Positions 1 to 64,000 of a DNA stretch of 64,000 nucleotides are shown here, piece by piece. Within the stretch, counting starts at the first letter, position 1; every line of letters starts with the position of its first letter. A program made the translations under genes and the position numbers. Origin of the DNA: Pristiophorus japonicus (taxonomy: Eukaryota); contig NC_091981.1 in the NCBI RefSeq assembly GCF_044704955.1, forward strand, positions 24,738,001 through 24,802,000, given 5' to 3'. Below the pieces are notes generated by a model that was not told the DNA's origin, did not search any database, and worked only from the letters and a program-made list of their open reading frames with translations.

Positions 1-455
1 TGGGATACAAAATTCCACAGATTCACGACCCTCTGAGAAAAAATTCCTCCTCATCTCTGTTTTAAATGGCGAGCCCTTATTCTGAAACTTTGCCTCCTAG
101 TTCTAGATTCCCCCATGAGGGGAAACATCCTCTCTGCATCTACCCTATTAAGCCCCCTTATAATCTTACACATTTTAATATAATCACCTCCATTTTTATA
201 AACACCAATGAGTATGGACCCAACCTGCTCAACCTTTCTTTATAAGACAACCGCTTCATCTCAGGAATCAACCTAGTAAATCTTCTCTGAACTGCCTCCA
301 ATGCAAGTACATCCCTCTTTAAAACTGTATGCAGCACTCCAGGTGTGGTCCCACCAACGCCCTGTACAGTTGTAGCAAGATCTCCCTACTTTTATTCTCC
401 ATCCGCCTTGCAATAAACGCCAACATTCCATTTGCCTTCCTAATTACTTGCTGTC
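1..455 (-). mobile_element. CR1 LINE 3' fragment (RT C-terminal region)
   Basis: Similar to the CR1 at 17206-20315. In copy B the same piece extends to a CATAAGAA-like tail at ~48480. Confidence 0.85.
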
Positions 456-456
456 G

Positions 457-1412
457 ACGTGTCTCCTATCATTTCTCCCCTCTCGGGTACTCGGCCCTCC
501 CAATTCCCTACTCCAATCCGACAGCTCACCTCCACCTTCCTACACTCATGCCACCATCAGAAGCTTGATCTTAGAGAAGACTATAGCTTCCCTCTGTGCC
601 TTGCTTGGCATTCTCTGAAGAGCCCAACAAGACACTCAATATCCTCTCCTTATGTGCAGCAACTCAAACTATCTCATCCTATTCTTTCGCCAGCCTTACT
701 GCTCAGTGCGAGAGCTGGGCACTAACCTTTCCAATTTCCATCCCGTCCCACTCACCCCGCCCAATGCTAACCCTGTGGATGATTGCTGCGACATCATGGC
801 CTTGACGGAAACCAGGCTGATGATTGAAGGCGCCTTCCCCCTAAATGAATCTTCCCTGCCTGGCTATACCTTTTATCACTGGCCTCACCCAAACAATTGC
901 TGACGCGGTGTGGCATTTATCACCAAATCACACCGTGGTTCGTCTCCGTACTCCTCTGGCACCTTCTCCTCCTTTGAACATCTCACCCTGTTCGACCTCT
1001 TTCGTATCCCATTTAAAATCCTTGTTCTCCACGTCCAGCCAAATACCAAGCCAACTTTCCCACCGCGATATCTTCACTGCCCTCCTCCCTTAACCACTGC
1101 ATTGAGTGATTTCTCATCTACAGTGATTTCAAGTACATCTCAACTCAGCATTCTCGCCCAGCTCTGAGTTCACTCCACTCCTATCCTCCCTTAATCTCTC
1201 CCTCCATATAAACTCCCTTACCCATACTCACGGCCACCCCCTCGATCTTGCGGCACCTCAGCTGTTCTCGCTGCTCCCACCGTTTCAATCACAGATCAGG
1301 CCATCTCTGATCACATCCTTGTATTGCACATCACCCACTTCCCCCTTTCCCCTCCAAACTCCCCTCAAATTCTCAGCTGTCCCTCCATTCATCACAACAT
1401 TTCTACAGCTAC
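457..1412 (+). mobile_element. Decayed L2/CR1-group LINE, endonuclease region (interrupted by an LTR element)
   Basis: APE-like peptides DDCCDIMALTETRL and LPGYTFYHWPH..GVAFITK. The sequence resumes at 4220 and is colinear with the L2 at 45859-47745. Confidence 0.75.
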
Positions 1413-4219
1413 GTGTTATGTATTGATGTGTGTATCGTCCTGGTATCTTAAATGTAATGTAAGCACAATGGTATACCACAGAGGGCACTGTGGTGGGAAA
1501 CCTGAAAGTACCTGCAACAGGCAATATAAAAGGCTGACCACCACACCTGAGCGGCACTCTGGAGCTGAACAATAAAGGACGAAGGTCACAGCAGTTAGAC
1601 TTACACCAGACTGTGTGGAGTCAGTGATTTGTGTGCTACATACACCACATTGGCGAACAAGGAAGCGAACGAACTCCACGCAACCATGGCTACTCTGGGC
1701 TCGCTAAAGGATTTTTACCGTGGGCAATGATTGGGAGGCCTTTACGGAAAGGCTCGAGTACTACTTCACAGCAAACGACCTGACGGAGGACACGGACGCA
1801 ATGAGAGATAAGCGTAAGGCGATATTGCTCTCCAGTTGTGGAGATGAGGTTTACTGTCTCGTCAGGGATTTGCTGGCACCCGGGAGCGCCAGGGACAAGT
1901 CATACGAGGAGCTGACTGAACTCATTCGTGACCAGTTGAAACCGAAGGAGAGCATCCTCACAGCCAGATACAAATTTTACCATCACTGCAGACCTGAGGG
2001 CCAGGATGTCACCAAATATGCTGCGGACCTCAGGAGACTCGCGGCGCCGTGTGATTTTGGGGCACAACTTGACGAGGCGTTACGGGACGTTTTCGTTATG
2101 GGGATTGGCCACGAGTGCCTCCTTCACAAGCTGTTAGCCACGGAACCCACAGTCACTCTGACAAAGGCCATCACCATCAGCCGGGCACATATGACCTCGA
2201 CTTGCAGCACGAAGCAAATAATCAACACAGTCTCGAACCCGGCAGGCACTGTCCACAGGATAGTGCCCACCACGGACAAAACTGCAGAACGTGGCTCTGC
2301 CCGGGGTAGAGAGCACGGACCATAGGGTCCTGGAACTCAGTGTCTGCCGAGGCGGGTAAATCAAGCAGCACCATGCTGGCGTTGTGGAGGAAGCCATGGG
2401 GCTCACCAGTGCAGGTTTGCGGAGTACACGTGCAATACCTGCCACACGAAAGGCCACCTTCAGCGTATGTGTAAAAGAAATCGGACTCACCATGTAGCTG
2501 AGGAGATGGGGGATGATCCACCATCCAGCGAAGAGCAGGCAGAAGATGATGAGGTGTTGGGACTGTACACGTGTACCGACGATTCGCCCCCAGTGATAAG
2601 GGAAGTAAAAATCAACGGAGTCCCTGTGAGTATGGAAGTGGACACGGGCTCGGGTTCATCGTTGATGAGTCGGAGAACTTTTGATAAACTGTGGATTAAC
2701 CCAGCTGCACGACCCAAGCTGGTCCCGGTCACGGCGAAGCTGCGTACCTACACCAGGGAACTAATACCTGTTCTTGGCAGAGCGATGGTGCAGGTATCCC
2801 ACGGGGACGAGACGCACGGTTTACCTTTGTGGGTCGTTGCAGGCGATGGGCCGACACTCCTCGGCCGGAGGTGGATGGGGACGGTCCGTGGGAGCTGTGA
2901 AGACTTCACCACTCCACAGGCTGCTGCTCCCCGGGGTGATGCCGTGCCCCGGGCCCCCAGAGAGCAGCGCCAACCGAGCTGGAGCTGCAGCCTCAATCGA
3001 CCCACAGGCAAGTCCCAGCCCCGGACCTCACACAGAGATCCTGCAGCCTCAGCCCCCACAGGCAAGTCCCAGCCCCGGACCTCAAGCCACAGAGATCCTG
3101 CAGCCTCAGCCCCCACAGGCAAGCAGCGCTGCAGAGAGGGGCCTAGTGGGGGGTGGGGGGGTGAGCTGGCAGGGCGCTGCGGGTGGGGTGCGAGGGATCC
3201 AGGATGGCGGATCGGAGGGGCCAATGCAGAGGGAGAGTCGGACGGCGGCAGCAGCTGGAGGTCGGCGGCCACGGCGGCCGCAGGGGAGGCCGCTACGGAG
3301 GTCACGGGGGGAGGCGGCAAGTGCGGCCGCTGAAGAGGCCACGACAGCCGCAAGTGCGGCCGCTGAAGAGGCCACGACAGCCGCAGGGGAGGCGGCTACG
3401 GTGGCCGCCGGAGAAGCGACCACGACAGCCGCAGGAGAGGCGGCAAGTCAGGTGGCAGCGGAGGGATGGTGGAGGCTGCGGCGGCGGAGGAATTCTGGAG
3501 CGGCGAAAAGCAAGATGGCGGTGGCCTCGTGTCCAGAGCAGCAGAGCATCAAAGATGTCAGCGCCCAAGGCGAAGCCTCGTGGAATCCTCCTGCATCAAA
3601 GATGGCGCCTTAAAAAGGAAATGCACCCGGGAGTCTTAAAGGGGCCTTACCATGTGGTGGTCCCCACAAAGGACTTCTGTAAGGCAGAGCGAGTCTAAAA
3701 TGAGTTATGTTAATGTGAGATGGCGGATTTATAATAAGAATTAATATTTTAATGCTGAATGGCCACTGTATTTGTGTAAAATAATGAATATGAAGCACAA
3801 TTAATGATAAGAGCTAACAAGGAAATCAGGGATCCGTTACCAGTCAATAACTAGTTTATGTACCAGATAACATGTACCATACTAACGCACTGTCTATGCC
3901 TACCTGCCTTCCGTTGGACAAATGTGATGTTATGTATTGATGTGTGTATCGTCATCCTGCGTCCTGGTGGGGGGGAAGTGTGATGTTATGTATTGATGTG
4001 TGTATTGTCCTGGTACCTTAAATGTAATGTAAGCACAATGGTACACCACAGAGGACGCTGTGGTGGGAAACCTGGAAGTACCTGCAACAGGCAATATAAA
4101 AGGCTGACCACCACACCTGAGAGGCACTCTGGAGCTGAACAATAAAGGACAAAGGTCACAGCAGTTAGATCAACACCAGACCGTGTGGAGTCAGTGATTT
4201 GTGTGCTACATACACCACA
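1413..4219 (+). mobile_element. Non-autonomous Gypsy-type LTR retrotransposon (gag + protease only)
   Basis: Direct LTRs at 1413-1649 and 3979-4219 end in CACCACA. PBS-like TGGCGA follows the 5' LTR, the PPT is GGGGGGGAAG at 3969-3978, and a CTAC target duplication is at 1409-1412 and 4220-4223. No RT, RNase H or integrase is present. Confidence 0.92.
1686..2900 (+). pseudogene. gag-protease pseudogene of the LTR element
   Basis: Contains DWEAFTERLEYYFTANDL (K02A2.6/Mag-like gag), zinc knuckles CWRCGGSH and CNTCHTKGHLQRMC, and protease motif MEVDTGS. It has a frameshift near 1712 and an in-frame stop at 2323-2325. Confidence 0.85.
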
Positions 4220-5164
4220 CTACTTATCTGCTCAATCACACCCTCACCTCCACCTTTGATGTTCTTGTCCCCATTTAAACCATTACTGCATTACTGTCTT
4301 TCACCCTGGTTATTCTTCCTGGTATGGTCCTAACCATTGCTCCATTAAGTCTAAGGGACGCAGACTTGAACTTTTATGGAGGACAAATGGTTTTGCTATT
4401 CATTGTCAGATCTGACTGCAATGCATAAAACATTATCGCACCCTTCTCTTCTCTGCCAAAAATGCTCACTTTTCCAGGATCATCCTGGATTGCAATGATA
4501 ACCCCTGGCTTCTATTTTCCATGACAAATAGTCTTCTTAAATCCCTCTCCCTGCCTCTTCCACCCTCATCTCCAGTACCAAGTGCGAGGACATCATGGAC
4601 TTCTCGGTCATGAAAATTGAGACGATCCATTCAGCCGCGTCTGCCGCTTCCGTCCCTTCACCTAGCTCACCAGGACAAACTTCACCTATGGGTTCCCACT
4701 GACCTAACCCTGAATATGCAACTTTCTCTCTATTGACTCCAATGTCTCTTCATGCCCCCACCAAGCTCACCTTGTCCTTGAGACCCAAATCCTACTCACT
4801 CGAGCCCTATTTTCACCAAGTTGATGACCACACAACTTTCTTCCTGGCCCCCATATTAGCTGATATCGTTAAATCTCCTTAGGTACTGTCCCCCACCCCT
4901 TCAAATCTGCTGTCATCACACCTCTCCTCGAAAAAAATCATCCCCAACTCCTCTGTCCTTGCAAACCATAGACCCATCTCCAAACTCCTTTGCTCTCCAA
5001 AATCCTTGATTGTGCCACCACCTCCCAAATCCATGCTGATCTTTCCCGATCTCAGCCCTCCCAATTCCCTACTTCAATCCAACAGCTCACCTCCACCTTC
5101 CTTCACTATCACAGGCTTGACTGCATCTTAGATAAGCCTACAGCTTCTCTCTGTGCCTTGCTTG
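4220..5164 (+). mobile_element. Decayed L2-type LINE (continuation), ending in a second copy of the 490-606 segment
   Basis: Colinear with 46190-47010 and includes an RT-proximal NHRPISKL-like region. 5052-5164 resembles 490-606. Confidence 0.75.
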
Positions 5165-5165
5165 T

Positions 5166-8100
5166 TGTAAAGTCCTGTCCCCTCAGTACAGATTCACACG
5201 AGTCATTTAGTGAAGCCAAGGTTTATTTCACAGTTCTGGAATGCTGCACTTGCCTGAGACCTGTCCTTATATACCTGTCTCTTGCAAGTGCACCCCTGGT
5301 GGTAAGGTATGCTGGTGGTTACAGGTCTTATCTTATTACAGTCATGTATAGCATGTTAGGATACAGTTATATATAATAATGTAAGATACATGACATCACC
5401 CTCCCCCAAGGTCTTATTGTCTTTATAGGTTCAGTCTTTCAGGTGGTCTACGCTCTCGCGTGGAGCGTCTGAGGTGTGGTTCAGTTGTTTGCCTTGGTGT
5501 CTGTTTTTCTTTGGGTGTGGTTGCTGGTATCTTGCCTGGGCTGTCTGTTTCAATTGGTGTGATTGTTGTTGACTCGCCTGGGCTGTCTGTTGGGATTGCC
5601 CTTTCCTCAGGTTGTTCCCTCTGTCTGTCCACCAGGTGTGATGTGAGTTCCACATTGTAGTCTGCCTCTGGTTCTACAGTGTTGTTGGTAAATCTGCTTT
5701 TGACTTGGTCAACATGCCTCCGGCAGGTTTGGCCATTGTCCATTTGTACTACCAGTAGCCTGCTTCTTTCCTTGCCCGTTAATGTCCCTGCAAGCCATTT
5801 GGGACCCCTGCCATAGTTTAGTACAAACACTTTGTCCCCTATCTCATTCCATCTCCTCCTCGAATTTCTGTCATGGTACTCAGTCAGCTTACGGCGCTTT
5901 GCCTCAACGATTTTGTGCATGTCTGGGTGGATTAATAAGAGCCTTGTTTTTAAAGTCCTTTTCATCAACAGTTGCGTGGGGGGAATCCCAGTCAATGAGT
6001 GCGGACGAGATCTGTATGCCAGCAGCAGTCGCGACAGGCGACCCTGCAGTGTGGGACCTTGGATTTTAATCATGCCTTGTTTAATGATTTGCACTGCTCT
6101 CTACGCCTGGCCGTTGGAGGCCGGCTTGAACGGTGCCATCTTGACGTAATTTATGCCGTGATCAATTATAAAATCTTGGAATTCTGCGCTGGTGAAGCAC
6201 GGACCATTGTCACTGACCAATATGTCAGGGATTCCGTGCGTTGCAAACATGGTTGCGAGGCTATTCTCAGTGGTGGAGATTGTGCTCGAGTTTAAAATGG
6301 TGCATTCATCCATTTTGAAAATGCATCTACAACTACGGGGAACATTTTGCCCATGAATGGGCCTGCATAGACTATGTGCACCCACGACCATGGTTTGGTA
6401 GGCCAAGGGCTCAGGGGAGCCTTCCTGGGGCATTGCTGAGTTAGGCACAAATGGTGCACCATCGGACGCAGAGCTCCAAGTCCGCGTCAATACCAGGTCA
6501 CCAGACGTGGGATCTGGCTATGGCCTTCATGAGAATGATCCCCGGGTGCTCGCGGTGGAGCTCCCGGACAAATGCCTCTCTGCCTCCCAGAGGCATGACT
6601 AATCAGCTGCCCCACATCAGGCAGTCCGCTTGTAGTAATAGCTCATGCATGCGCCTGTGAAAAGGTTTGAATTCCTCGGGGCAGGCATCGCTAGCCTCTG
6701 CCCAGTCACCGGTCAGGACACATCTTTTTACTAATGATAACGTGGGGTCGCTGGCCGTCCAGGCTCTGATTTGGCGAGCCGTCATGGGCGAACCTGTGGA
6801 CTCAAAGGCATTGATTGCCATGACTATCTCACAGGCCTGTTCGTCAGACCCTTCCGTGGTCGCCAGGGGTAGCCTGCTGAGCGCGTCGGCACATTTGTCT
6901 GTGCCTCGTCTGTGCCTTATGGTATAGTCGTAGGACGCCAGCATGAGTGCCCACCGTTGAATTCGCGCCGAGGCGTTGGCGCTTATTGCCTTGCTCTCGG
7001 ATAGGAGGGACGTGAGGGGCTTATGGTCGGTTTCTAACGCGAACTTGGCCCTGAAAAGGTATTGGTGCATCTTTTTGACACCGTACACGCACGCAAGCGC
7101 CTCCTTCTCTACCATTCCATACCCGCACTCCGCCCACGAAGTGACCTGGAGGCATAAGCTATGGGTTATAATTTGCCCGCACTATTGACATGTTGTAAAA
7201 CACACCCGACCCCATACGCTGACACATCGCATGTGAGACCTAGCTTTTTACCTGGATCAAAGAAAGTCAAAACACTGTTGGAACACAGAAGGTTGCATGC
7301 CTTATTGAAGGCGCGTTCCTGGGCGTCCCCCCAAAACCAATCGCACCCCTTCCTGAGTAGCACATGGAGAGGCTCCAGCAGCGTGCTTAAGTTCTGCATA
7401 AAGTTCCCAAAGTAATTGAGTAGCTCGAAAAAGGCGCGCATTTCTGAGACATTCCGGGGCCTGGGTGCCAGGCGAATTGCTTCTGTTTTGGACTCTGTTG
7501 GGCGGATTCCATCAGCGGCAATCCTTCTGCCCAAAAATTCAACCTCGGGTGCGAGAAACAGGCACTTGGATTTCTTAACTCGTAGGCCTACCCAATCCAA
7601 CCGCTTTAGTACTTCCTCCAAAGTACGGAGATGGGAGTCGGTGTCCCTGCCCGTGATAAGTATGTCATCTTGAAATACAACCGTCCCCGGGATGGACTTG
7701 AGCAGACTCTCCATGTTGCGCTGGAATATGGCAGCTGCCGACCTGATGCTGAATGGGCATCGATTGTACATGAAAAGGCCTCGATGTGTGTTGATGGTGG
7801 TGAGTAGCTTGGATTCCTCGGTCAATTCTTGCGTCATATACGCAGATGTGAGGTCTAATTTTGAGAAAAGTTTACCTCCAGCCAATGTGGCAAATAAGTC
7901 CTCCGCTCTGGGCAGCGGGTACTGGTCCTGTAGGGAGACTCTGTTTATGGTAGATTTGTAGTCCCCACAGATTGGTACGGATCCATCAGGCTTCATGACT
8001 GGGACGATGGGACTTGCCCAGTCGCTAAATTCCACAGGTGATATAATGCCTTCCCGCAGAAGCCTGTCTAGTTCGTGTTCAATCTTTTCCCTCATCACAT

Positions 8101-9360
8101 AGGGTACAGCTCTGGCCTTGTGATGGACCGGTCTAGCATCCTGTGTGATGTAGATTTTGACTTTGGCCCCTTTGAAAGTGCCCATACCTGGCTGAAAGAG
8201 ATGTTCAAATCACTTCATAACTGTTGAGCAGGAGGTCCGTTCCTCTAACGACATGGCATGGACATCATCCCATTTCCAGTTTAGTTTTGCCAGCCAGCTT
8301 CTCCCCAGCAGTGCTGGGGGGTCTCCGGGGACAATCCACAGGGGAAGTCGGTTCACTGTCCCTTTGTGTTTGACGGAGAGCATGGCGCTGCCGAGGACTG
8401 ATACGATTTCTTTGGTATAGGTCCTTAGCTTGGTGTCGACCCTTGTGAGTTTTGGTATGTCTCTTTTATGCGGCCACAATTGTTCAAATTGTTGAGCGCC
8501 CATGAGAGATTGACTCGATCCCGTATCCAGCTCCATGTTGACAGGTATCCCGTTGAATAGGACCCTCATCATTATAGGAGGTGTCCTGTTGTAGGAGCAG
8601 CGGCCATTGATCGTGTTGACCCGCTGTACATCGGTGTCCCGGGTACTGTCCCCACCGTCTTCTGGTCCGCTTTCCGACCCATCCGATTCGTATACCAGCC
8701 GAGCTGTCGTTTTTTTGCACATGCGGGCCAAATGCCCTGTATATTCACAGTTCCTGCAAACAGCCTGCTGAAATTGACATCCCCTTGACAAGTGCCCACC
8801 CCCACACCTCCAGCACAGACCGCTTCCATTGTTTCCAAAGAATGAGCTGCGTCTGGCTGATCTCTCTTGAGCTTCTCTCAGTTTGTAGTTGATTGCTCGC
8901 ATTGTGGGTTGATGAAGTGTGAACGGCCGTCCCTGTGGCCCTTGATGGCTTCTGGCGCCATTGCCTGCTGTCGAGGGCCTGCTCTTCCGCTTTTGTCTGT
9001 GTGTCGGGGTGGCAGCTTGTTTCATGCTGTGAACTCCTTTTTCCGATATTTCGTTAGTTGTCGTACCTGCATTGTAAATCAACCTCGTTTCTTCTTCCCC
9101 TGCCAAGAATGTCTGTGCAACCAGTGCTGCTGCCTCTAAGGTCAGGTTCTTGGTCTCTATGAGCTTTCGGAATATGCCTGCGTGGCCTATTCCTTCAATG
9201 AAAAAGTCTCTCAGCATTTCTCTCCTCAGTTTCATCGGAGAACTCACATAAACTAGCCAACCTCTGAAGTTCCGCCACAAAGTCGGGTATGCTCTGGCCC
9301 ACACAGCATCTGTAGTTGTAGAACCTGTGTCTGGCCATGTGTAAGCTGCTCGCTGGCTGA
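5166..9360 (-). mobile_element. 5'-truncated Gypsy LTR retrotransposon with decayed gag-pol
   Basis: Minus-strand domains: gag and zinc knuckle, protease MELDTGS (8210-9427), RT with FQDD (7166-8185), RNase H (EKEALA, ETDHKPL; 6603-7115) and integrase (SDNGPCF; 5423-6490). The PPT is beside a 3' LTR at ~5166-5395. No 5' LTR is present. Confidence 0.95.
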
Positions 9361-9720
9361 CCTTTGAAGCATGGCATTGGTCACCTGAGTGATGCATCTG
9401 TGGACGGCCGACTGCGAGATGCTGCAAATGTCTGCTGCAGATCCCTGGAAGGAGCCTGAGATGAAGAAGTTGAGGCCCATGGTGAATTTGACAGTCACTG
9501 GTAAGGCATGTCCACTAGGTTCTCTGGGCAACAGGTCTTGTTCCAGCAAGCTACAAATATCTGCGTTGAACTGACGTAATAGCCTGAGCCTCAGGTCGGT
9601 GAGAAGAGACTGCTGGTGTAGTTGCTGCAGCTGCTGGTGTGGCTGGTGTTGCTGGTGCTGAGACTCACCCTGGTCCAATTCTGAGGATCAAGGTGAGACA
9701 GCATAGTGGCACCCATGCTG
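9361..9720 (-). mobile_element. Harbinger/PIF transposase N-terminal fragment
   Basis: [43 protein letters not shown] is a HARBI1-like helix-turn-helix region. Confidence 0.88.
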
Positions 9721-10705
9721 ATCTAATAGATGCCAGGTAACGTGGAGATCAGAGGCACAATCCTCCAGTGTACTGAGAGTGACTAGCAATGTGGTGAGAG
9801 TAGCTTCCTAGGTTGCAGAAATGACCTGTGAACTCCTGAAAGTGAAATCTCTGAACAAAATGGTGTCAGCCAGAGCCTTCCGCTTAGGCAAGGTGTGAGT
9901 ATTTATGTGTTTTTTCCAGCTGTCACTTAATGGACTCGCACAATGGCCACCGAGCTCCCGCCTCCCCTGCACAGACGATGTCCCGAGGGGTATGAGTAGC
10001 TTATCAGCGGGTATAGCTTCTTGTGGGGTATTTTTCTGCAATGACAATTACAATAGAACTTAAATGCTGAGTTTTACAGAGTGCAATTTTTTAGCCAATC
10101 CAATTTTGCCAGTTCTCTGTCCGAAAACAAAGCAGCAAAGGTGGGGTGAAGGGTTGGAAATAAAGGATTAAAAACATATTTATTTTTGTGTTTAGATGAC
10201 CTGCTCTGTTTGAAACGTTGACCAAGATCCTTGCTTTTGAGTTTTAAGTTTCAAAAGAACTTTTATTGGAATAAAAAATAGAAAATACTGGATCATTAAA
10301 TGCAAAAGAATGGTGATTAAAGGTATGTTAGATGAACGCATTTTACTTGTTAAATCTTCTGTAACCCCACCCCCCAAAAGAAATTCAAATAAAAATATCG
10401 ATTAAATGAATACAAAATGTGGTTCAGTGATTTATTGTTTTGGAATCTGTAAAGATAGATTGATCGCTTTCTGATTTAAAAGATTGAAATCTTTTTTCCT
10501 TATTTTGTATAAAGCTCTATTTGCAATGTAGACCAAAATCCCTGCTTTTGGGTTTTTAATTCCAAAAGAATTTTGCTTTTAAAAAATAAATAGAAAATCC
10601 TGGCAATAAATAATAGTCCAGATTTACCAATTTTAGGCATAGGTATGGTGCTACAGATTTAAAAACTCTGGGCAGTTAATTAATCAGCACCTAAACACAT
10701 ATTAT

Positions 10706-11331
10706 GGGCTAGAATTTCCATAAAATCCACCACCGCCGAATTGCCGTCCAAAAAAACGCTACGATTATTAAATTAATGCTGATGAAAAATTGCACAAAAG
10801 AGGAAAAAATTCTGCCTGGCGGGAAAAATGGGACTTACATGCAGATTCTGGGTGGAAAACACAATCCTGGGCAAATTGGGCGGTTCTTTATCAAATTGGT
10901 CGTTACTTACTCAAATATAGTCCGAGGCTGCGGTTTGGGCCTAGGGAGGGGGGAAAACACAAAAAATATTTTTTCCAAAAAACCAAAAATCAGAAAACAT
11001 TCCCAGGACCCTTTTCCACTTAATCGCTGTAAAATGAATTTTAAAACAATTTAAAAAACACTTTAACTTAACTTTTTTTGCCGGGTTTCATACCAACTGC
11101 CCTGGCTGGTTTCTCGTGGGCATTTTTTTCCTACTCACCTACGGGTCACCGCTGAGACCAAACGTGAATGGTGGGGTTTTTTTCGGCGGTGCACGCTAGC
11201 GGTCCGCTCCCCAACAGTATTTCGAGACCGCCGGCGGAACTCTTTGTGGAAATTCTCGCCGGGTGGTTTCTCGGCGAAAACGAGCATTACCACCGAAAAT
11301 CCCGGTGGAAATGGTGTGGAAATTCTAGCCC
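10706..11331. mobile_element. Harbinger-type MITE
   Basis: Perfect 15-bp terminal inverted repeats GGGCTAGAATTTCCA ... TGGAAATTCTAGCCC around a non-coding interior. The same terminus type is on the transposase-bearing elements at 21349 and 36827. Confidence 0.85.
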
Positions 11332-11363
11332 AAAGACAGGTTAATTTCATCAGAATATAAAAT

Positions 11364-11998
11364 CTAACATGGGAACAGGAGTAGGCGATTCTGCCCCTCG
11401 AGCCTCTTCCACCATTCAGTTAAATCTGTATCTGAATTCCATCGAACCACCTTGGTTCCGGAACCCTTAATACCCTTGCCTAACAAAAATCTATCAATCT
11501 CACTTGTGAAGTTTTCAATTGACCGAGTCTCAACAGCTTTGTGGGGGAAGAGAGTTCCAGGTTTCGAGTACCCTTTGAGTGAAGAAGTGCTTTCTGACTT
11601 CACCCCTGAACAGCCTAGCTCTAATTTTAAGGCAATGCCCGCTTGTGGACTCTCCCACCAGAGGAAATAGTTTCTCTCTATCTACCCTATCAAATCCTTT
11701 AATCATTTTAAACACTTCAATTAGATCACCCTAAACCTTCTATATTCAAGGGAATACGTCTAGTCCATACAGCCTGTCCTCATAATTTAACCATTTAACC
11801 GCGATATAATTCAGTAAACGTGTGCGTAACCCCCTCCAAGCCAAGATATCCTTCTTGAAGTGCAGTGCCCAGAACTGAATGCAGTGTCCAGATGGGGTCT
11901 AACCAGAGCTGTAACATAATTCCCACCCCTTTATAAGTTAAAGGCTAACATTTCATGTCTTTTTAATTATTTTGTACCTGTCCAATATCTTCTAGTGA
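11364..11998 (-). mobile_element. CR1 3' fragment
   Basis: ORF piece FKMIKGFDRVDREKLFPLVGES..FFTQRV. Confidence 0.85.
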
Positions 11999-12000
11999 TA

Positions 12001-12392
12001 GGAACATAAGAAATAGGAGCAGGAGTAAGCCATTTGGCCTCTCGAGCCTGCTCCACCATTCAATAAGATCATGGCTAATCTGATCTTGGCCTCAACTCCA
12101 CTTCCCTACCTGCTTCCCATAATTCTTGACTCCCTTAACATTCAAAAATCTGTCTATCTCCACCTTAAATGAATACAATGATCCAGCATCCACCACTCTC
12201 TGGGGTAGAAAATTCCAAAGTTCACCACGCTCTGAGAGAAGAAATCCCTCCTCAATTCCGTTTTAAATGGGCAAACCCTTATTCTGTAAATATTCCCCTA
12301 AGTTCTAGATTGGCCCACGAGGGGAAACATCCTCTCTGCATCTACCCTGTCAAGGCACCTCAGAATCTTATACGTTTCAATAATTCACCCCC
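12001..12392 (-). mobile_element. CR1 3' fragment with tail
   Basis: The gaacataagaaataggagcaggagt 3' end is shared with the other CR1s. Confidence 0.85.
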
Positions 12393-13439
12393 TTAGTCTT
12401 TTAGCAGGTACTGAAAAAGATGATTTTGATTTTCCCTTCCAATACAATTGAAGAATCAGCTTGAGCAAGAGAACAGCAATTCATGATTCACAATAATGAG
12501 CCCATTCGCATGAGGGGAAATCACCGCAATATTTGCCAAAATCTTCAGCTACACAAGTGTTGGAATGCTGGGTGCACCTGCAGCTTTGACTATAACCAAG
12601 CCAGGCCCTACTGCACACTCAGTGTAACTATCTGTCACAGGTCTATATTCAAGGGGGTTACAGTTTTGGGGGCTGTGTCATTATTCTCTGTAACAAAGCC
12701 AGGCCCTACTGCAGGGGTTCTGAACGTGGCGGGACAAATCGGATTCGGAACTCAAGAGCAAAAGCACCCAACTGCAGTGGCCCAGAAATGCTGACAGATG
12801 AACTGAATATCAATCACCAAGGCAAGGTGACTGGTGCACCTGCGGATGGCAGCTTTGGTGCTTGTGATTTGAGCAGGTCCGCCTCGCTAGGTCTCTGGGT
12901 CCGCCACCCGGCTTACCGGTGACCGACCAGGCAGTTTCCGTTATCTCTGGGCACACCTTCGCCCAGGCGAGCACAGATGACGCACCCGAGTGACAGTGGG
13001 TGGGTGGGTGACGGGCCTGCAGATTTATCAGTCTGAAAGCAATCTCGTGCTTTACTGCTGTCCCTGCGTCCTGGCAAAGGTGTAGCCTCACAGGCTGGGT
13101 ACTGCCCTCCCAATCTCAGCAAGCCCTCTCACTCGGCTCAGCACTGAAATCGCCATTTCACCCTCTTCCCTTGCTCGCTCGGGGCCAGTACGGCCAAACA
13201 GAACGAACACCTGGGGGCAACAGACCCCTTCAGTGACAATATTGAAATTATACTGCCACCCTCTGTCCCATCAAAGCTATTAGACCTGTCATTGACAAGT
13301 TTCCCATGAAGTAATTAAAATAAAAATAATAAATATATATGTTTAATTGTAAAATTAATTTTTATACAGAAAAAATACTTATGTTGTCTTATAGGGAGTG
13401 GGTGGGATTTTTATAGCACATGGGAGCCTCAGAAGCAGA

Positions 13440-14684
13440 AAGGTTCTTTGAGGATGTACCGAGCAAGGTGGATAAGGGGGAACCAGTGGATGTGGTGTAT
13501 TTGGATTTCCAGAAGGCATTTGATAAGGTGCCACATAAAAGGTTACTGCACAAGATAAACGTTCACGAGGTTGGGGGTAATATATTAACATGGATAGAGG
13601 ATTGGCTAACTAACAGAAATCAGAGAGTTGGGATAAATGGGTCATTTCCTGGTAGGCAAACAGTAACTAGTGGGGTGCTGCAGGGATCGGTGCTGGGTCC
13701 TCAATTATTCACAATCTATATTAATGACTTGGATGAAAGGACCGAGTGTAATGTAGCCAAGTTTGCTAATAATACAAAGATGGGTGGGAAAGCAAATTGT
13801 GAGGAGGACACAAAAAATCTGCAAAGGGACATAGACAGGCTAAGTGAGTGGGCAAAAATTTGGCAGATGGAGTATAATGTGGGAAAATGTGAGGTTATCC
13901 ACTTTGGCAGAAAAAATAAAAAAGGAAATTATAATTTAAATGGAGAAAAATTGCAAAGTGCTGCAATTCAGAGGGACCTGGGAGTCCTTGTGCATGAAAC
14001 ACAAAAAGTTAGTATTCAGGTACAGCAAGTAATCGGGAAGGCAAATGGAATGTTGGCCTTTATTGCAAGGGGGATAGATTATAAAAGCAGAGAAGTCCTG
14101 CTACAACTGTACAGGGTATTGGTGAGGTCACACCTAGAACCCTCCATATTTAAGGAAGGATATACTTGCTTTGGAGGCTGTTCAGAGAAGGTTCACTAAG
14201 TTGATTCCAGTGATGAGGGGGTTCACTTATGAAGATAGGTTGAGTAGGTCAGCCTATACACATTGGAGTTCAGAAGAATGAGAGGTGATCTTATCGAAAC
14301 AGATAACATAAAGTGGGGGCTCGACAAGGTGGATGCAGGGAGGATATTTCCACTCGTAGAGGAAACTAAAACTAGAGGATAGTCTCAAAATAAGGGGCTG
14401 CACATTTAAAACTGAAATGAGGAGGAATTTGTTCTCTCAAATGGTTGTAAATCTATGGAATTCTCTGCTCCAGAGAGCTGTGGAGGCTGGGTCATTGAAT
14501 AAATTCAAGGCGGTGATCGACAGGTTTTTGAGCGATAAGGGAATAAAGAGTTATGGAGAGTGGGCGGGGAAGTGGTGCTGAGTCCATGATCTGATCAGCC
14601 ACGATCTTATTAAATGGCAGAAGCGGCTCGAGGGGCCAAATGGCCTATTCCTGCTCTTATTTCTTATGTTTATATTTCTTATGT
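13440..14684 (+). mobile_element. 5'-truncated CR1 LINE (RT domain and 3' UTR)
   Basis: VDVVYLDFQKAFDKVPH and GVLQGSVLGPQLF; ends in a TTCTTATG tail. Confidence 0.95.
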
Positions 14685-14689
14685 AATCC

Positions 14690-14828
14690 TTCTCTTCAGT
14701 TGCAAACCCTGGTCATTCGTTACTTTCTTGATGGTCTTATTATACTAAAATCCTTCTGAACATCTATGTTTTGTATTCATTTTTCTTGAAGTTTTAAATA
14801 ATGGAGGACCAGAGCAAGGCAAATTACT
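14690..14828 (+). pseudogene. Truncated paralogue of the serpinB intron 1/exon 2 junction (MEDQSKANY stub)
   Basis: About 140 bp alignable to 25134-25273. ATG is at 14801, and similarity stops after 9 codons. Confidence 0.85.
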
Positions 14829-14994
14829 TTTGTTCTCGTGGTCTACTCCTACCCTCCTACACACTGAGTGTAACCACCTGTCACAGGCTGGATTCAGGGG
14901 GTTACAGGTTTGGGGCTGTGCCAGCTTTTGGTAGTTTTCTAATTTTGCATGTACACTTCTCACAAGCTCTGCAAGTTTTAATTCCGCATCAACT

Positions 14995-15110
14995 TTAAAA
15001 AAAGAGGAAACGCCTTGTGTTCCCAGTAAGAGGACCGCCTCCGCTCTGAGGGATAACAGAGCAGTCCTGTCAATCCGGGGGTGGAGGGGCGGCTGCTCAG
15101 GATTAAAAGG
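14995..15110 (+). promoter_or_regulatory. Putative serpinB promoter
   Basis: ETS/PU.1-like AAAGAGGAA at ~15001, GC box GGGGCGG at ~15086 and TATA-like GATTAAAA at 15101-15108, in non-TE sequence just upstream of a consensus donor. Confidence 0.5.
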
Positions 15111-15124
15111 CGCCACACAGGTGA

Positions 15125-15188
15125 CGCACAGAGCAAAGTGAAGACAGTGAGAGGAAGTGTTGGATGCTGAACGACAGCAGCGCATAAG
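15125..15188 (+). other. Putative non-coding exon 1 of the serpinB gene (start approximate)
   Basis: Consensus donor AAG|GTAAGT at 15188/15189. Clade B serpins characteristically have an untranslated exon 1. Confidence 0.55.
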
Positions 15189-17190: not shown

Positions 17191-17205
17191 AATTAAATGT
17201 AAGAT

Positions 17206-20200
17206 AAATAAGAACATAAGAATTAGGAACAGGAGTAGGCCATCGAGCCCCTCGAGCCTGCTCCGCCATTCAAAAAGATCATGGCTGATCTGGCCGTGGA
17301 CTCAGCTCCACTTACCCGCCCGCTCCCCATAACCTTTAATTCCCTTATTAGTTAAAAATCTATCTATCTGTGACTTGAATACATTCAATGAGCTATCCTC
17401 AACTGCTTCCTTGGGCAGAGAATTCCACAGATTCACAACCCTCTGGGAGAAGAAATTCCTTCTCAACTCGGTTTTAAATTGGCTCCCCCGTATTTTGAGG
17501 CTGTGCCCCCTAGTTCTAGTCTCCCCGACCAGTGGAAACAACCTCTCTGCCTCTATCTTGTCTATCCCTTTCATTATTTTAAATGTTTCTATAAGATCAC
17601 CCCTCATCCTTCTGAACTCCAACGAGTAAAGACCCAGTCTACTCAATCTATCATCATAAGGTAACCCCCTCATCTCCGGAATCAACCTAGTGAATCGTCT
17701 CTGTACCCCCTCCAAAGCCAGTATATCCTTCCTTAAGTAAGGCGACCAAAACTGCACGCAGTACTCCAGATGCGGCCTCACCAATACCCTATACAGTTGC
17801 AGAAGGACCTCCCTGCTTTTGTATTCCATCCCTCTCGCAATGAAGGCCAACATTCCATTCGCCTTCCTGATTACCTGCTGCACCTGCAAACTAACTTTTT
17901 GGGATTCACGCACAAGGACCCCCAGGTCCCTCTGCACCGCAGCATGTTGTAATTTCTGCCCATTCAAATAGTATTCCCTTTTTTTGTTTTTTTTCCCAAG
18001 GTGGATGACCTCACACTTTCCGACATTGTATTCCATCTGCCAAACCTTAGCCCATTCGCTTAACCTATCTAAATCTCTTTGCAGCCTCTCTGTGTCCTCT
18101 ACACAACCCGCTTTCCCACTAATCTTTGTGTCATCTGCAAATTTTGTTACACTACACTCTGTCCCCTCTTCCAGGTCATCTATGTATATTGTAAACAATT
18201 GTGGTCCCAGCACCGATCCCTGTGGCACACCACTAACCACCGATTTCCAACCCGAAAAGGACCCATTTATCCCGACTCTCTGCTTTCTGTTCGCCAGCCA
18301 ATTCTCTATCCATGCTAATACATTTCCACTGACCCCGCGTACCTTTATCTTCTGCAGTAACCTTTTGTGTGGCACCTTATCGAATGCCTTTTGAAAATCT
18401 AAATACACCACATCCATCGGTACACCTCTATCCACCATGCTCGTTATATCCTCAAAGAATTCCAGTAAATTAGTTAAACATGATTTCCCCTTCATGAATC
18501 CATGCTGCGTCTGCTTGATTGCACTATTCCTATCTAGATGTCCCACTATTTCTTCCTTAATGATAGTTTCAAGCATTTTCCCCACTACAGATGTTAAACT
18601 AACCGGCCTATAGTTACCTGCCTTTTGTCTGCCCCCTTTTTTAAACAGATGCGTTACATTAGCTGCTTTCCAATCCGCTGGTACCTCCCCAGAGTCCAGA
18701 GAATTTTGGTAGATTATAACGAATGCATCTGCTATAACTTCCGCCATCTCTTTTCATACCCTGGGCTGCATTTCATCAGGACCAGGGGACTTGTCTACCT
18801 TGAGTCCCATTAGCCTGTCCAGCACTACCCCCCCTAGTGATAGTGATTGTCTCCAGGTCCTCCCTTCCCACATTCCTGTGACCAGCAATTTCTGGCATGG
18901 TTTCTGTGTCTTCCACTGTGAAGACCGAAGCAAAATAATTGTTTAGGGTCTCAGCCATTTCCACATTTCCCATTATTAAATCCCCCTTCTCATCTTCTAA
19001 GGGACCAACATTTACTTTAGTCACTCTTTTCCGTTTTATATATCTGTAAAAGCTTTTACTATCCGTTTTTATGTTTTGCGCAAGTTTACCTTCGTAATCT
19101 ATCTTTCCTTTCTTTATTGCTTTCTTAGTCATTCTTTGTTGTCGTTTAAAGTTTTCCCAATCTTCTATTTTCCCACTAACCTTGGCCACCTTATACGCAT
19201 TGGTTTTTAATTTGATGCTCTCCTTAATTTCCCTGGTTATCCACGGCTGGTTATCCCTTCTCTTACCACCCTTCTTTTTCATTGGAATATATTTTTGTTG
19301 AGCACTATGAAAGAGCTCCTTAAAAGTCCTCCACTGTTCCTCAATTGTGCCACCGTTTAGTCTGTGTTTCCAGTCTACTTTAGCCAACTCTGCCCTCATC
19401 CCACTGTAGTCCCCTTTGTTTAAGCATAGTATGCTCGTTTGAGACACTACTTCCTCGCCCTCAATCTGTGTTACTAATTCAACCACACTGTGATCACTCA
19501 TTCCGAGAGGATCTTTTACTAGGAGATCGTTTATTATTCCTGTCTCATTAAACAGGACCAGATCTAAGATAGCTTGCTCCCTTGTAGGTTCTGTAACATA
19601 CTGTTCTAAGAAACAATCCCGTATGCATTCTATGAATTCCTCCTCCAGGCTACCCCGTGCGATTTGATTTGACCAATCGATATGTAGGTTAAAATCCCCC
19701 ATGATTACTGCCGTTTCTTTTTCACATGCCTCCATTATTTCCTTGATTATTGCCCGCCCCACCGTGAAGTTATTATTTGGGGGCCTATAAACCAAGCCCA
19801 CCAGTGACTTTTCCCCCTTACTATCTCTAATCTCCACCCACAATGATTCAACATTGTGTTCATTGGAGCCAATATCGTCTCTCACAACTGCCCTGATATC
19901 ATCCTTTATTAACAGAGCTACCCCACCTCCTTTCCCTTCTTGTCTATCTTTCCGAATCGTCAGATACCCCTGTCCCAGTCTTGGCCACCCTGCAACCACG
20001 TTTCTGTAACGGCCACCAAATCATACCCATTTGTAATGATTTGTGCCGTCAACTCATTTACTTTATTTCGAATGCTGCGTGCGTTTAGGTAGAGTGTTTT
20101 AATACTAGTTTTTAATCCATGATTTTTAGTTTTGACCCCTCCTGCAGCCCCTTTACATTCAGTGGCCCTTTTTGTTTTTTGCCTTGGGTTTCTCTGCCCT

Positions 20201-20315
20201 CCACTTTTACTCATCTCCTTTCTGTCTTTTGCTTTTGTCTCCTTTTTGTTTCCCTCTGTCTCCCTGCATTGGTTCCCATCCCCCTGCCACATTAGTTTAA
20301 CTCCTCCCCAACAGC
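17206..20315 (-). mobile_element. Young CR1 LINE with near-complete ORF2 (APE + RT), few disruptions
   Basis: ORFs 19960-20292 (YLNARSIRNK), 18776-19999 (MGDFN, SDH) and 17302-18747 (RT, FADD), with a CATAAGAA tail at ~17210. Confidence 0.97.
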
Positions 20316-21348
20316 ACTAGCATATATAAACAAATAGAAGGATATATTGACGGGGTGAGATGAAGTAGGGTAGGATGAGACTCATGTGGAGCATAGACCA
20401 GTTGGTCTGAATGTCCTGTTTCTGTGCTGTAAAATTCTATGCAACACTGGTACCTCATGAATGGCACTGAAATAGCTAAGACTGATCTAAAAAGAGACCT
20501 AGATATCTTGGTAGACTCAATACTAAACATATATAAGTAATCAACAGAGCTACTAGAATGTAGAACTACATCACCAAAACAGTTGAATATAAATCAGAGG
20601 AAGTCAATGATCAAACCATAACTGCTCTGGTTAGATCACATTTCAAGTATTATGTTCAATTCTGGTCACCAAGATACAATTGAGAGCTTCTAGTGCTGGA
20701 GGCAGCAGAGAGAAGATCAATGAGACTGATCCTTGGTTGCTGTGGTCTGAGATATGAAAAAAGACCAGTCTGGAAAGGAGGAGTCTGAGAGGTAATATTA
20801 CAGAGTCAAAAGAAATAGTAAATGTTGTGGAAAAGGTAAATGTGGGAGTAAAACAAGGAGACAAAGGTTCCAACTCGTAAAAGATAACTTTAGGACTGAT
20901 ATCAGGACGTTCTTTTTAACATAGTGAGCAACACTTGGTTTAGATTTCCAGATGGAGTCGTACAGGTGAAAACCTAGGTTGCATTTAAGAAAGAATTCTA
21001 TAATGAAATGGGAGGATTGTAGAGCACCTGTGGATGGATGAACTAATGTGGGTCAAATGGTCTTCTCCTCTGGAATTATCTTGTGATCTGTCAATACATC
21101 TATCCCTATAATAGTTTGTGCACAAGGACAAATATTTGAAAGTAGTGATGGAAAGCTCATTTAAACTATCAGTGTATGTTGAGGAATATATATTTGCCTT
21201 TGTAGTTTGTTCTATGAACGCAAGGCAAAATGGCTGCTGCAAGCATTATGGGTAGGATAAAATGCAGGATAAAATGATGCAACATGGGTGAAGACAGTTA
21301 GTCTAAGAAAGTGATGCACACTTCTGCACGTAGCCTTTAGAACCCCGA

Positions 21349-25245: not shown

Positions 25246-25413
25246 ATGGAGGACCTGAGCAAAGCAAATTGCCATTTCACCCTTGACCTATTCAGAAAGC
25301 TGGTTGAAAAAAATCAAGCTGGCAACATCTTTTTTTCTCCATTCAGCATCTCCAGTGCGTTGGCCATGGTTTATCTTGGAGCAAAAAATAATACTGCATC
25401 TCAAATGGCAAAG
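25246..25413 (+). CDS. Clade B serpin (SERPINB1/leukocyte elastase inhibitor-like), first coding exon
   Basis: [56 protein letters not shown]: 56 codons, no signal peptide. Acceptor TTTTTCCTGCAG| at 25236 and phase-0 donor AAG|GTATGT at 25413/25414 match the ov-serpin exon 2 layout. Confidence 0.95.
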
Positions 25414-28155: not shown

Positions 28156-28912
28156 CTCCCTTTCTTTCTGAGCCCCCATTCCCCCTCTCCCCTCTCCCCC
28201 ATTCCCCAGTCTCCCTCTCCCCCATTCCCCAGTTTCCCTCTCCCCCATTTCCCAGTCTCTCTCCCCCCGAGCCCCCATTCCCCACTCTCCCTCTCCCCAA
28301 ACCCCCATTCCCCAGTCTCCCTCTCCTCCATTCCCAGTCTCCCTCTCCCCGAGCCCCCATTCCCCAGTTTCCCTCTCCCCCATTCCTAGTCTCCCTCTCC
28401 CCAAGCCCCCATTCCCCACTCTCCCTCTCCCCGAGCCCCCATTCCTCAGTCTCCGTCTCCCCGAGCCCCCATTCCACAGTCTCCCTCTCCCCCATTCCCA
28501 GTCTCCCACTCTCTCACTCCCCCATTCCTCAGTCTCCGTCTCCCCGAGCCCCCATTCCCCAGTCTCCCTCTCCCCCATTCCTCAGTCTCTGTCTCCCCCC
28601 TAGCCCCCATTCCCCACTCTCCCTCTCCTCGAGCCCCCATTCTCCACTCTCACTCTCCCCGAGTCCCTATTCCCCACTCTCCCTCTCCCTCTCCCCGAGC
28701 CTCCATTCCTCAGTCTCCGTCTCCCCGAGCCCCCATTCCTCAGTCTCCGTCTGCCCGAGCCCCCATTCCCCACTCTCCCTCTCCCTGAGCCCCCATTTCC
28801 CACTCTCCCTCTCCCCGAGCCCCCATTCCTCAGTCTCCCTCTCCCGGAGCCCCCATTCACCAGTCTCCCTCCCCCTGAGCCCCCATTCCTCAGTCTCCCT
28901 CTCCCCAAACCT
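28156..28912. repeat. CT-rich minisatellite, ~21-29-bp units (CCCCATTCCCCAGTCTCCCTCTCCCCGAG)
   Basis: More than 25 degenerate tandem units are directly visible. Confidence 0.97.
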
Positions 28913-29054
28913 CCACGTGGTCGCTGCTCTCGGCTGCGGTGATCAAGTGACATCACCGAGCCAGAGGTTCCACTGAGCAACAGCCGGTGAGGTCACGGAG
29001 CGGGGGAGGGGAAGGGAGGAACTAACCACTGGATGGCTAATCTCAGACTTGGTC

Positions 29055-29080
29055 AGTTTCACTTTCCAGTTTCACTTTCA
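29055..29080 (+). promoter_or_regulatory. Two abutting ISREs of the IFIT promoter
   Basis: AGTTTCACTTTCC (29055-29067) and AGTTTCACTTTCA (29068-29080) match the AGTTTCNNTTTCN consensus. Confidence 0.93.
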
Positions 29081-53805: not shown

Positions 53806-56800
53806 TGTAAAGTCCTGTCCCCTCAGTACAGATTCACACGAGTCATGTAGTGAAGCCAAGGTTTATTTCACAGTTCTGGAATGCTGCACTTGCCTGAGAC
53901 CTGTCCTTATATACCTGTCTCTTGCAAGTGCACCCCTGGTGGTAAGGTATGCTGGTGGTTACAGGTCTTATCTTATTACAGTCATGTATAGCATGTTAGG
54001 ATACAGTTATATATAATAATGTAAGATACATGACATCACCCTCCCCCAAGGTCTTATTGTCTTTATAGGTTCAGTCTTTCAGGTGGTCTACGCTCTCGCG
54101 TGGAGCGTCTGAGGTGTGGTTCAGTTGTTTGCCTTGGTGTCTGTTTTTCTTTGGGTGTGGTTGCTGGTATCTTGCCTGGGCTGTCTGTTTCAATTGGTGT
54201 GATTGTTGTTGACTCGCCTGGGCTGTCTGTTGGGATTGCCCTTTCCTCAGGTTGTTCCCTCTGTCTGTCCACCAGGTGTGGTGTGAGTTCCACATTGTAG
54301 TCTGCCTCTGGTTCTACAGTGTTGTTGGTAAATCTGCTTTTGACTTGGTCAACATGCCTCCGGCAGGTTTGGCCATTGTCCATTTGTACTACCAGTAGCC
54401 TGCTTCCTTCCATAGAAACATAGAAACATAGAAAATAGGTGCAGGAGTAGGCCATTCGGCCCTTCTAGCCTGCACCGCCATTCAATGAGTTCATGGCTGA
54501 ACATTCAACTTCAGTACCCCATTCCTGCTTTCTCGCCATACCCCTTGATCCCCCTAGCAGTAAGGACCTCATCTAACTCCTTTTTGAATATATTTAGTGA
54601 ATTGGCCTCAACAACTTTCTGTGGTAGAGAATTCCACAGGTTCACCACTCTCTGGGTGAAGAAGTTCCTCCGCATCTCGGTCCTAAATGGCTTACCCCTT
54701 ATCCTTAGACTGTGACCCCTGGTTCTGGACTTCCCCAACATTGGGAACATTCTTCCTGCATCTAACCTGTCTAATCCCGTCAGAATTTTATATGTTTCTA
54801 TGAGGTCCCCTCTCATTCTTCTGAACTCCAGTGAATACAAGCCCAGTTGATCCAGTCTTTCTTGCCCGTTAATGTCCCTGCAAGCCATTTGGGACCCCTG
54901 CCATAGTTTAGTACAAACACTTTGTCCCCTATCTCATTCCATCTCCTCCTCGAATTTCTGTCATGGTACTCAGTCAGCTTACGGCGCTTTGCCTCAACGA
55001 TTTTGTGCATGTCTGGGTGGATTAATGAGAGCCTTGTTTTTAAAGTCCTTTTCATCAACAGTTGCATGGGGGGAATCCCAGTCAATGAGTGCGGACGAGA
55101 TCTGTATGCCAGCAGCAGTCGCGACAGGCGACCCTGCAGTGTGGGACCTTGGATTTTAATCATGCCTTGTTTAATGATTTGCACTGCTCTCTACGCCTGG
55201 CCGTTGGAGGCCGGCTTGAACGGTGCCATCTTGACGTAATTTATGCCGTGATCAATTATAAAATCTTGGAATTCTGCGCTGGTGAAGCACGGACCATTGT
55301 CACTGACCAATATGTCAGGGATTCCGTGCGTTGCAAACATGGTTGCGAGGCTATTCTCAGTGGTGGAGATTGTGCTCGAGTTTAAAATGGTGCATTCATC
55401 CATTTTGAAAATGCATCTACAACTACGGGGAACATTTTGCCCATGAATGGGCCTGCATAGACTATGTGCACCCACGACCATGGTTTGGTAGGCCAAGGGC
55501 TCAGGGGAGCCTTCCTGGGGCATTGCTGAGTTAGGCACAAATGGTGCACCATCGGACGCAGAGCTCCAAGTCCGCGTCAATACCAGGTCACCAGACGTGG
55601 GATCTGGCTATGGTCTTCATGAGAACGATCCCCGGGTGCTCGCGGTGGAGCTCCCGGACAAATGCCTCTCTGCCTCCCAGAGGCATGACTACTCGGCTGC
55701 CCCACATCAGGCAGTCCGCTTGTAGTAATAGCTCATGCATGCGCCTGTGAAAAGGTTTGAATTCCTCGGGGCAGGCATCGTGAGCCTCTGCCCAGTCACC
55801 GGTCAGGACACATCTTTTTACTAATGATAACGTGGGGTCGCTGGCTGCCAGGCTCTGATTTGGCGAGCCGTCATGGGCGAACCTGTGGACTCAAAGGCAT
55901 TGATTGCCATGACTATCTCACAGTCCTGTTTGTCAGACCCTTCCGTGGTCGCCAGGGGTAGCCTGCTAAGCGCGTTGGCACATTTGTCTGTGCCTCGTCT
56001 GTGCCTTATGGTATAGTCGTAGGACGCCAGCATGAGTGCCCGCCGTTGAATTCGCGCCGAGGCGTTGGCGTTTATTGCCTTGCTCTCGGATAGGAGGGAC
56101 GTGAGGGGCTTATGGTCGGTTTCTAACGCGAACTTGGCCCTGAAAAGGTATTGGTGCATCTTTTTGACACCGTACACGCACGCGAGCGCCTCCTTCTCTA
56201 CCATTCCATACCCGCACTCCGCCCACGAAGTGACCTGGAGGTATAAGCTATGGGTTGTAATTTACCCGCACTATTGACATGTTGTAAAATGCACCCGACC
56301 CCATACGCTGACACATCGCATGTGAGAACTAGCTTTTTACCTGGATCAAAGAAAGTCAAAACACTGTTGGAACACAGAAGGTTGCATGCCTTATTGAAGG
56401 CGCGTTCCAGGGCGTCCCCCCAAAACCAATCGCTCCCCTTCCTGAGTAGCACATGGAGAGGCTCCAGCAGCGTGCTTAAGTTCTGCATAAAGTTCCCAAA
56501 GTAATTGAGTAGCTCGAAAAAGGCGCGCATTTCTGAGACATTCCGGGGCCTGGGTGCCAGGCGAATTGCTTCTGTTTTGGACTCTGTTGGGCGGATTCCA
56601 TCAGCGGCAATCCTTCTGCCCAAAAATTCAACCTCGGGTGCGAGAAACAGGCACTTGGATTTCTTAACTCGTAGGCCTACCCAATCCAACCGCTTTAGTA
56701 TTTCCTCCAAAGTACGGAGATGGGAGTCGGTGTCCCTGCCCGTGATAAGTATGTCATCTTGAAATACAACCGTCCCCGGGATGGACTTGAGCAGACTCTC

Positions 56801-63767: not shown

Positions 63768-63772
63768 AATCC

Positions 63773-63911
63773 TTCTCTTCAGTTGCAAACCCTGGTCATT
63801 CGTTACTTTCTTGATGGTCTTATTATACTAAAATCCTTCTGAACATCTATGTTTTGTATTCATTTTTCTTGAAGTTTTAAATAATGGAGGACCAGAGCAA
63901 GGCAAATTACT
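63773..63911 (+). pseudogene. Duplicate serpinB exon-2 stub (ATG 63884)
   Basis: Matches 14690-14828. Confidence 0.85.
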
Positions 63912-64000
63912 TTTGTTCTCGTGGTCTACTCCTACCCTACTACACACTGAGTGTAACCACCTGTCACAGGCTGGATTCAGGGGGTTACAGGTTTGGGGCT

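Follow-up and report, generated by a model that had tools for sequence, protein, structure and literature searches.

The window considered here is a 64,000-nucleotide stretch of the genome of the sawshark Pristiophorus japonicus (NCBI RefSeq assembly GCF_044704955.1, contig NC_091981.1, forward-strand positions 24,738,001 to 24,802,000). It holds an intact gene of the IFIT family, an orphan exon of a SERPINB1-like serpin gene and, at its two edges, two copies of a block of DNA in the same orientation, which we regard as probably belonging to neighbouring units of an IFIT array. The principal features (window coordinates) are:

1..14917, + strand: copy A of the repeated block, cut off by the left edge of the window and made up mainly of pieces of long interspersed nuclear elements (LINEs), long terminal repeat (LTR) retrotransposons and DNA transposons
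25246..25413, + strand: orphan exon of 56 codons, the first coding exon of a SERPINB1-like gene; its acceptor and its donor are both intact (Pfam Serpin, 2.8e-17)
29055..29079, + strand: two tandem motifs (29055 and 29068) of the interferon-stimulated response element (ISRE) type, putative and recorded by presence only, ~125-150 bp 5' of the IFIT start codon
29082..29206, + strand: IFIT exon 1, with the ATG at 29202 plus two coding bases; its start is the known extent in contigs
33753..35205, + strand: IFIT exon 2; the spliced product has 485 amino acids and is identical to protein P0123
48687..64000, + strand: copy B of the repeated block, cut off by the right edge of the window
54412..54855, − strand: LINE 3'-end fragment of ~445 bp, present in copy B only (the largest indel)

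The duplicated block

Self-BLAST of the window matches 48687-54411 to 1-5771 at 97.9% identity and 54856-64000 to 5765-14917 at 99.2%, in both cases on the same strand, and these matches reach both window edges, the first beginning at base 1 and the last stopping at base 64000. A global alignment of copies A and B comprises 14,860 aligned columns with 129 substitutions (0.87%) and 11 indels, and nearly all identical 31-mer pairs in the window (11,616 of 11,872, far above chance) lie at offsets of 48.5-49.2 kb. A first-pass annotation of this sequence had reported the direct recurrence of 1-14917 at 48687-64000, with both copies reaching the window edges, and all three comparisons bear it out. 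The offset between the copies shifts from ~48.7 to 49.1 kb because of the LINE end at 54412-54855, which breaks LTR-element sequence that is unbroken in copy A and is 94.8% like a LINE end at 33276-33719. Of the inferred ~49-kb period, 15 kb is visible twice inside the window. As in tandem duplications generally, the copies exceed 1 kb, are more than 90% identical, have the same orientation and have their repeat junctions in common.

The block itself is a patchwork of decayed transposon pieces, host remnants and some unique DNA. Three of its components are:

1414..4219, + strand: internally deleted LTR retrotransposon with an aspartyl protease and 236-bp LTRs that are 94.9% alike; same junctions in both copies
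5423..9514, − strand: second, broken LTR retrotransposon, with protease, reverse transcriptase, RNase H and integrase in separate frames
14691..14825, + strand: old truncated serpin remnant (intron end and first ~25 coding bases), 82% like 25137-25270 and repeated in copy B at 63774-63908

The element at 1414-4219 is older than the duplication, since its junctions are identical in copies A and B. Corresponding LTRs of the two copies are 99.2% and 97.5% identical, i.e. closer than the two LTRs of the one element are to each other, and together with the common junctions this indicates that the block was copied in one piece after the insertions had occurred. Independent insertions are ruled out by the presence of several unrelated transposons and the serpin remnant (which the first-pass annotation missed) at common junctions. 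The block is a segmental duplication. The class names Gypsy (1414-4219), CR1 (the LINE end at 54412-54855) and L2 are our assumption, Pfam having yielded domains only. A local 100-bp pair, 79% alike, occurs at 10203-10301 and 10514-10611; outside the block, 38-bp and 42-bp units are each repeated 3.6 times, at 44330-44464 and 30820-30969, respectively.

Alternatively, the block could be a single mobile element of large size, such as a Helitron or a Maverick, that carried captured fragments and landed twice near the IFIT gene. The block is indeed almost wholly mobile DNA, and its ends lie outside the window; this explanation is nevertheless scarcely credible, as the block combines decayed elements of several classes, nested in one another, with host remnants, and helicase, DNA polymerase B and capsid domains are absent from the reading frames scanned. 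These frames were an initial 14 and 123 of a further 169 stop-to-stop frames of at least 70 amino acids in 1-48.7 kb, the remaining 46 falling within obvious transposon or repeat sequence, in sense or antisense.

Divergence between the copies is patchy. Outside CpG sites, it amounts to 0.27-0.30% in two segments outside the LTR elements and to 0.78-1.22% in three others (chi-square P about 5e-6). This pattern is suggestive of either gene conversion or a mosaic history.

The IFIT gene and its protein

The gene at 29-35 kb is an intact, spliced IFIT. Evidence for splicing comes from the contigs of four sequencing runs: the joint between exons 1 and 2 (29204-33751, GT..AG), which removes an intron of 4,546 bp, is present in the contigs of X5, X6 and X7, all from one study, and absent from those of the DNA run X1. 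Runs X5-X7 are without an RNA label on record and are counted as RNA solely on the spliced joint, and their contigs lack expression level or condition. Every letter of two contigs, 34457-34750 (X7) and 34490-34687 (X5), equals the window IFIT. Pfam finds tetratricopeptide repeat (TPR) families in the protein, and the overall layout (two exons, ISREs, a TPR protein of ~485 amino acids) is the family layout stated in PMC3688568. The top database matches carry the name Pristiophorus japonicus, the Japanese sawshark. In the spliced X7 contig, 29 letters 5' of 29082 are unplaced (repeat), and transcripts may start upstream of a TATA-like motif near 29117, with the proviso that contigs cannot show a transcription start.

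The intron contains a further insertion:

32199..33717, + strand: LINE fragment within the IFIT intron

One X1 contig joins across this LINE, with three other letters just upstream; a LINE-free version of the intron thus exists in some other copy, allele or paralog.

No other intact host gene was found among the 14 + 123 frames scanned, a scan that exons shorter than 70 codons would escape. The earlier statement that IFIT is the only intact gene per unit accordingly holds for the frames scanned, with the addition that the gene is spliced. Pfam matched 11 of the 123 frames: ten matches are transposon domains, and the last, to SelB-wing_2, lies inside a LINE fragment and was judged spurious. The conserved IFIT neighbours FAS, ACTA2, CH25H, SLC16A12 and PANK1 were not seen inside the 64-kb window, and an Rfam scan of the window gave 0 matches. 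Other observations are decayed DDE_Tnp_4 transposase pieces at 37297-38406 and 29605-29823, presumably Harbinger-like, and a GIY-YIG fragment at 39154-39507.

The best solved relatives of the protein are human IFIT5 (PDB 3zgq/4hor; E 2e-105 over residues 1-483) and IFIT1 (5w5h; E 2e-100). Orthology to IFIT5 is unsupported by any test applied. Read by eye from the alignment, the positions of IFIT5 R186, Y250, R253, Y254, R260, H287 and Q288 are conserved. Among the nine triphosphate-pocket residues of IFIT5 that were checked (T37, Q41, K150, R186, Y250, R253, Y254, R260 and Q288), six are retained; T37 is replaced by Arg, Q41 by Leu and K150 by Ser (Ser149 in the sawshark protein). In human IFIT5, K150 is, according to PMC9677429, the strongest contact to the RNA 5' end, and its loss cuts binding ~15-fold. 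To judge from these replacements, the RNA-end preference of the sawshark protein may differ from that of IFIT5. Across 163 shark and ray IFIT sequences, the K150-equivalent position is highly variable (S, K, R, T, N, G), and those of R186, R253 and R260 are nearly invariant; a diversification of RNA 5'-end recognition across shark and ray IFITs is possible.

The orphan serpin exon

Between copy A and the IFIT gene, the orphan exon is accompanied by the following features:

15086..15188, + strand: candidate serpin promoter and non-coding first exon, from motifs only (GC box ~15086, TTAAAA ~15103, donor AG/GTAAGT at 15188)
17202..20320, − strand: fairly intact LINE within the inferred serpin intron, with an endonuclease frame of 414 amino acids, a reverse transcriptase frame of 483 amino acids and one frame break
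28170..28915, no strand assigned: degenerate CT-rich tandem tract of period ~30, with 12 minus-strand motifs of the G-quadruplex (G4) type; it separates the serpin-derived DNA from that derived from IFIT

The first-pass annotation placed a serpin promoter just past the point corresponding to the end of copy B. The motifs lie 170-270 bp beyond the end of copy A; the promoter is a candidate only.

The product of the exon is 100% identical to the N-termini of three sawshark leukocyte-elastase-inhibitor-like proteins (P0167, P0168 and P0170); of the about 380 residues of such a SERPINB1-like protein, the window holds only 56. When nine shark serpins were searched against the window with tblastn (E up to 10), no later exon or reactive centre loop was found: among the matches listed, no hit beyond residues 1-56 was better than E 0.2. 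The serpin piece does not qualify as a functional clade B serpin gene. One 75-bp sequence is present at both 12606-12680 and 14852-14923; taken with the remnant at 14691-14825, it suggests a serpin-cluster origin for at least 11 kb. Five sawshark SERPINB1-like proteins (P0167, P0170, P0171, P0176 and P0185) are 84-91% identical, with near-identical N-termini and very different reactive-loop regions. An inverted pair of ~340 bp, 78% alike (21349-21685 and 26145-26480), flanks the orphan exon at 4.5-5 kb; its members are probably the ends of a common DNA transposon.

A serpin-IFIT fusion protein was considered and rejected, as the serpin exon ends in phase 0 but IFIT exon 2 starts in phase 2, and splicing the two would bring a stop after 83 codons. 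Since an in-frame fusion is impossible and IFIT transcripts have an exon 1 of their own, the serpin piece has probably been carried along as a passenger. No protein with both Serpin and TPR families occurs among the best 120 of 366 matches, and an annotated short serpin product was found in 0 of 2 exact look-ups. Loose contig ends at the IFIT acceptor are absent among the 24 of 751 rows listed. In other elasmobranchs, judged from long contigs present in both hit lists, IFIT and SERPINB1-like proteins lie on contigs of unequal length in all 16 species compared, so the adjacency in the sawshark looks derived.

The transplanted promoter and first exon could conceivably have a role of their own. 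Transcripts started there would then be spliced to IFIT exon 2 (yielding an IFIT from Met34) or run through the IFIT promoter, the six-copy subfamily, which also lacks the K150-type contact, would be made without interferon in serpin-expressing cells, and selection would have amplified the rewired unit. We hold this scenario to be a long shot.

A probable IFIT array and its alternatives

The UniRef 90% cluster of P0123 has six members, five of them named as sawshark. The five further proteins differ from the window IFIT at 1, 2, 4, 5 and 6 of 485 residues, and from each other at up to 8. The six fall into two groups of three that are four residues apart (M270I, K278E, K303N and R311S mark the group without the window IFIT). 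In a quick tree of 75 of the 163 IFIT sequences, they form one clade (Shimodaira-Hasegawa-like approximate likelihood ratio test, SH-aLRT, 100), the other sawshark IFITs being 77-85% identical. Because a single diploid locus yields at most two proteins, six distinct ones argue for three loci or more, even with both haplotypes retained in the assembly. Sawshark-headed IFIT clusters together hold 42 sequences in six clusters (38 retrieved, some of them isoforms). Contig depth in X1 is 35-42 for the eight contigs listed on the window IFIT and 233-312 for contigs with letters of other sawshark IFIT subfamilies, a ratio near the 6:36 split of UniRef sequences; this is a weak hint, as depth is no copy number. 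Contig coding differences at residues 89, 121, 126, 229, 234 and 237 fit the other subfamilies (0/6 vs 32/32) and are uninformative on the six.

A young gain in copy number fits the presence of at least six near-identical IFIT proteins. We consider it likely that the two copies belong to adjacent units of a head-to-tail array repeating every ~49 kb at a sawshark IFIT locus, each unit carrying one intact IFIT predicted to be interferon-inducible; the serpin exon may be co-amplified with IFIT in each unit. The unit length that we infer agrees with a count of window placements: both ends of the block stay hidden for ~(L - 15 kb) of placements, i.e. ~1 kb if the duplicated length L is 16 kb and ~34 kb if it is 49 kb, which favours a long duplicated unit. 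Under the same period, the next serpin exon and the next IFIT exon 2 were predicted by the first-pass annotation at ~74,329 and ~82,836; the arithmetic is correct, and both positions fall outside the window.

Several observations weigh against such an array. The window contains one IFIT and one intact serpin exon, and a second of either was not seen in place. A second shark, Heptranchias perlo, shows that near-identical IFIT copies are common in such clusters, and the six need not belong to this repeat. That the six proteins stem from a single assembly is inferred from similar UniRef identifiers, and base errors could add variants. The letters of M270I, K278E, K303N and R311S are not among 40 listed differences (of 42) in any of the four runs; contigs drop variants, which makes this absence weak evidence, yet it leaves the second group without read support. 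Finally, the lower divergence class, 0.27-0.30% in two segments, is close to the allelic diversity of another shark: for the epaulette shark, PMC10587355 gives a pi of 0.002 and a mutation rate of 7e-10 per generation. With that mutation rate, a divergence of 0.3% would take about two million generations of separation to build up. As 0.3-0.9% is near the allelic level, the age is only loosely bounded, and the earlier description of the expansion as 'very recent' was overstated, holding only in the sense that the age does not exceed that of normal allelic variants; divergence alone does not exclude haplotypes.

An assembly artefact, in which a single locus is represented by both of its haplotypes, placed in tandem as copies A and B, would account for this near-allelic divergence, for two groups of three proteins four residues apart, for the missing read support of the second group and for the two forms of intron site 31493 in X1. 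It is opposed by the six proteins, which argue for at least three loci, and by the zero N letters in the 64-kb window, hence no gap between the copies. In addition, all six sawshark serpin proteins looked up as a control are single-member clusters, i.e. the annotation is not doubled throughout, contrary to what wholesale false duplication would give. On balance, an artefact of this kind strikes us as distinctly improbable.

Less remote, although still unlikely, is a real duplication that is not uniform, with a transposon-rich spacer of 16-40 kb or mosaic units of unequal length, the serpin exon missing from some units and the six IFITs partly elsewhere in the cluster. The patchy divergence speaks for a mosaic history, the contig without the intronic LINE is a structural difference among related copies, and neither a short serpin protein (0 of 2 exact look-ups) nor a serpin-TPR model (best 120 of 366 matches) turned up. 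The window-placement count runs counter to it, as do the differences among the six proteins (0.2-1.6%), which are similar in magnitude to the divergence of the block at the DNA level.

If the array with a ~49-kb period is correct, its history would comprise three steps. A rearrangement would have brought serpin-cluster DNA, 11 kb of it or more, next to an IFIT gene, with the junction at a point between 25.5 and 29.0 kb, where a LINE and the CT-rich, G4-prone tract lie. The joined region would then have been duplicated and expanded by unequal crossing-over, with patchy gene conversion, and individual copies would have gained private insertions. Beside its IFIT, each unit would carry two kinds of passenger: remains of transposons and the defunct 5' part of a SERPINB1-like gene. 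The effect would be a higher dose, and an incipient divergence, of an RNA-binding antiviral protein.

The processes invoked have precedents. For the IFIT family, the literature describes lineage- and species-specific duplication, segmental duplicates, transfer from one chromosome to another and gene conversion (PMC3688568, PMC4887208); mouse Ifit3b/Ifit1c and dog IFIT5L are described there as segmental duplicates, dog IFIT5L having moved between chromosomes. The vertebrate clusters treated in PMC3688568 resemble the sawshark locus in having an exon 1 that consists of ATG plus two bases, tandem ISREs, a TPR protein and growth by segmental duplication with gene conversion. They differ in scale (8 genes in elephant shark, 10 in zebrafish and 11 in Xenopus, compared with the 42 sawshark sequences), and the word 'serpin' has 0 occurrences in the synteny passages of that paper. 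Heptranchias perlo has a species-specific clade of 13 close IFIT sequences on a single 53-Mb contig, which is a comparable young burst and independent of the sawshark clade. A literature search, with supplements and most subscription papers outside its scope, found no published shark IFIT array or IFIT-SERPINB link.

Head-to-tail copying is the ordinary growth mode of immune gene clusters, and no general principle is changed by the locus described here; its unusual detail is the serpin-IFIT adjacency, an instance that is new of a mechanism that is known. If the array is real, it would capture birth-and-death evolution at a dated moment, in the most ancient lineage of jawed vertebrates that has interferon, and the sawshark IFIT repertoire would stand several times above the counts tabulated in PMC3688568. 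The serpin-IFIT junction marks a rearrangement that the 16 other sharks and rays compared do not show, and may serve as a test bed for whether a foreign promoter can rewire an interferon-stimulated gene.

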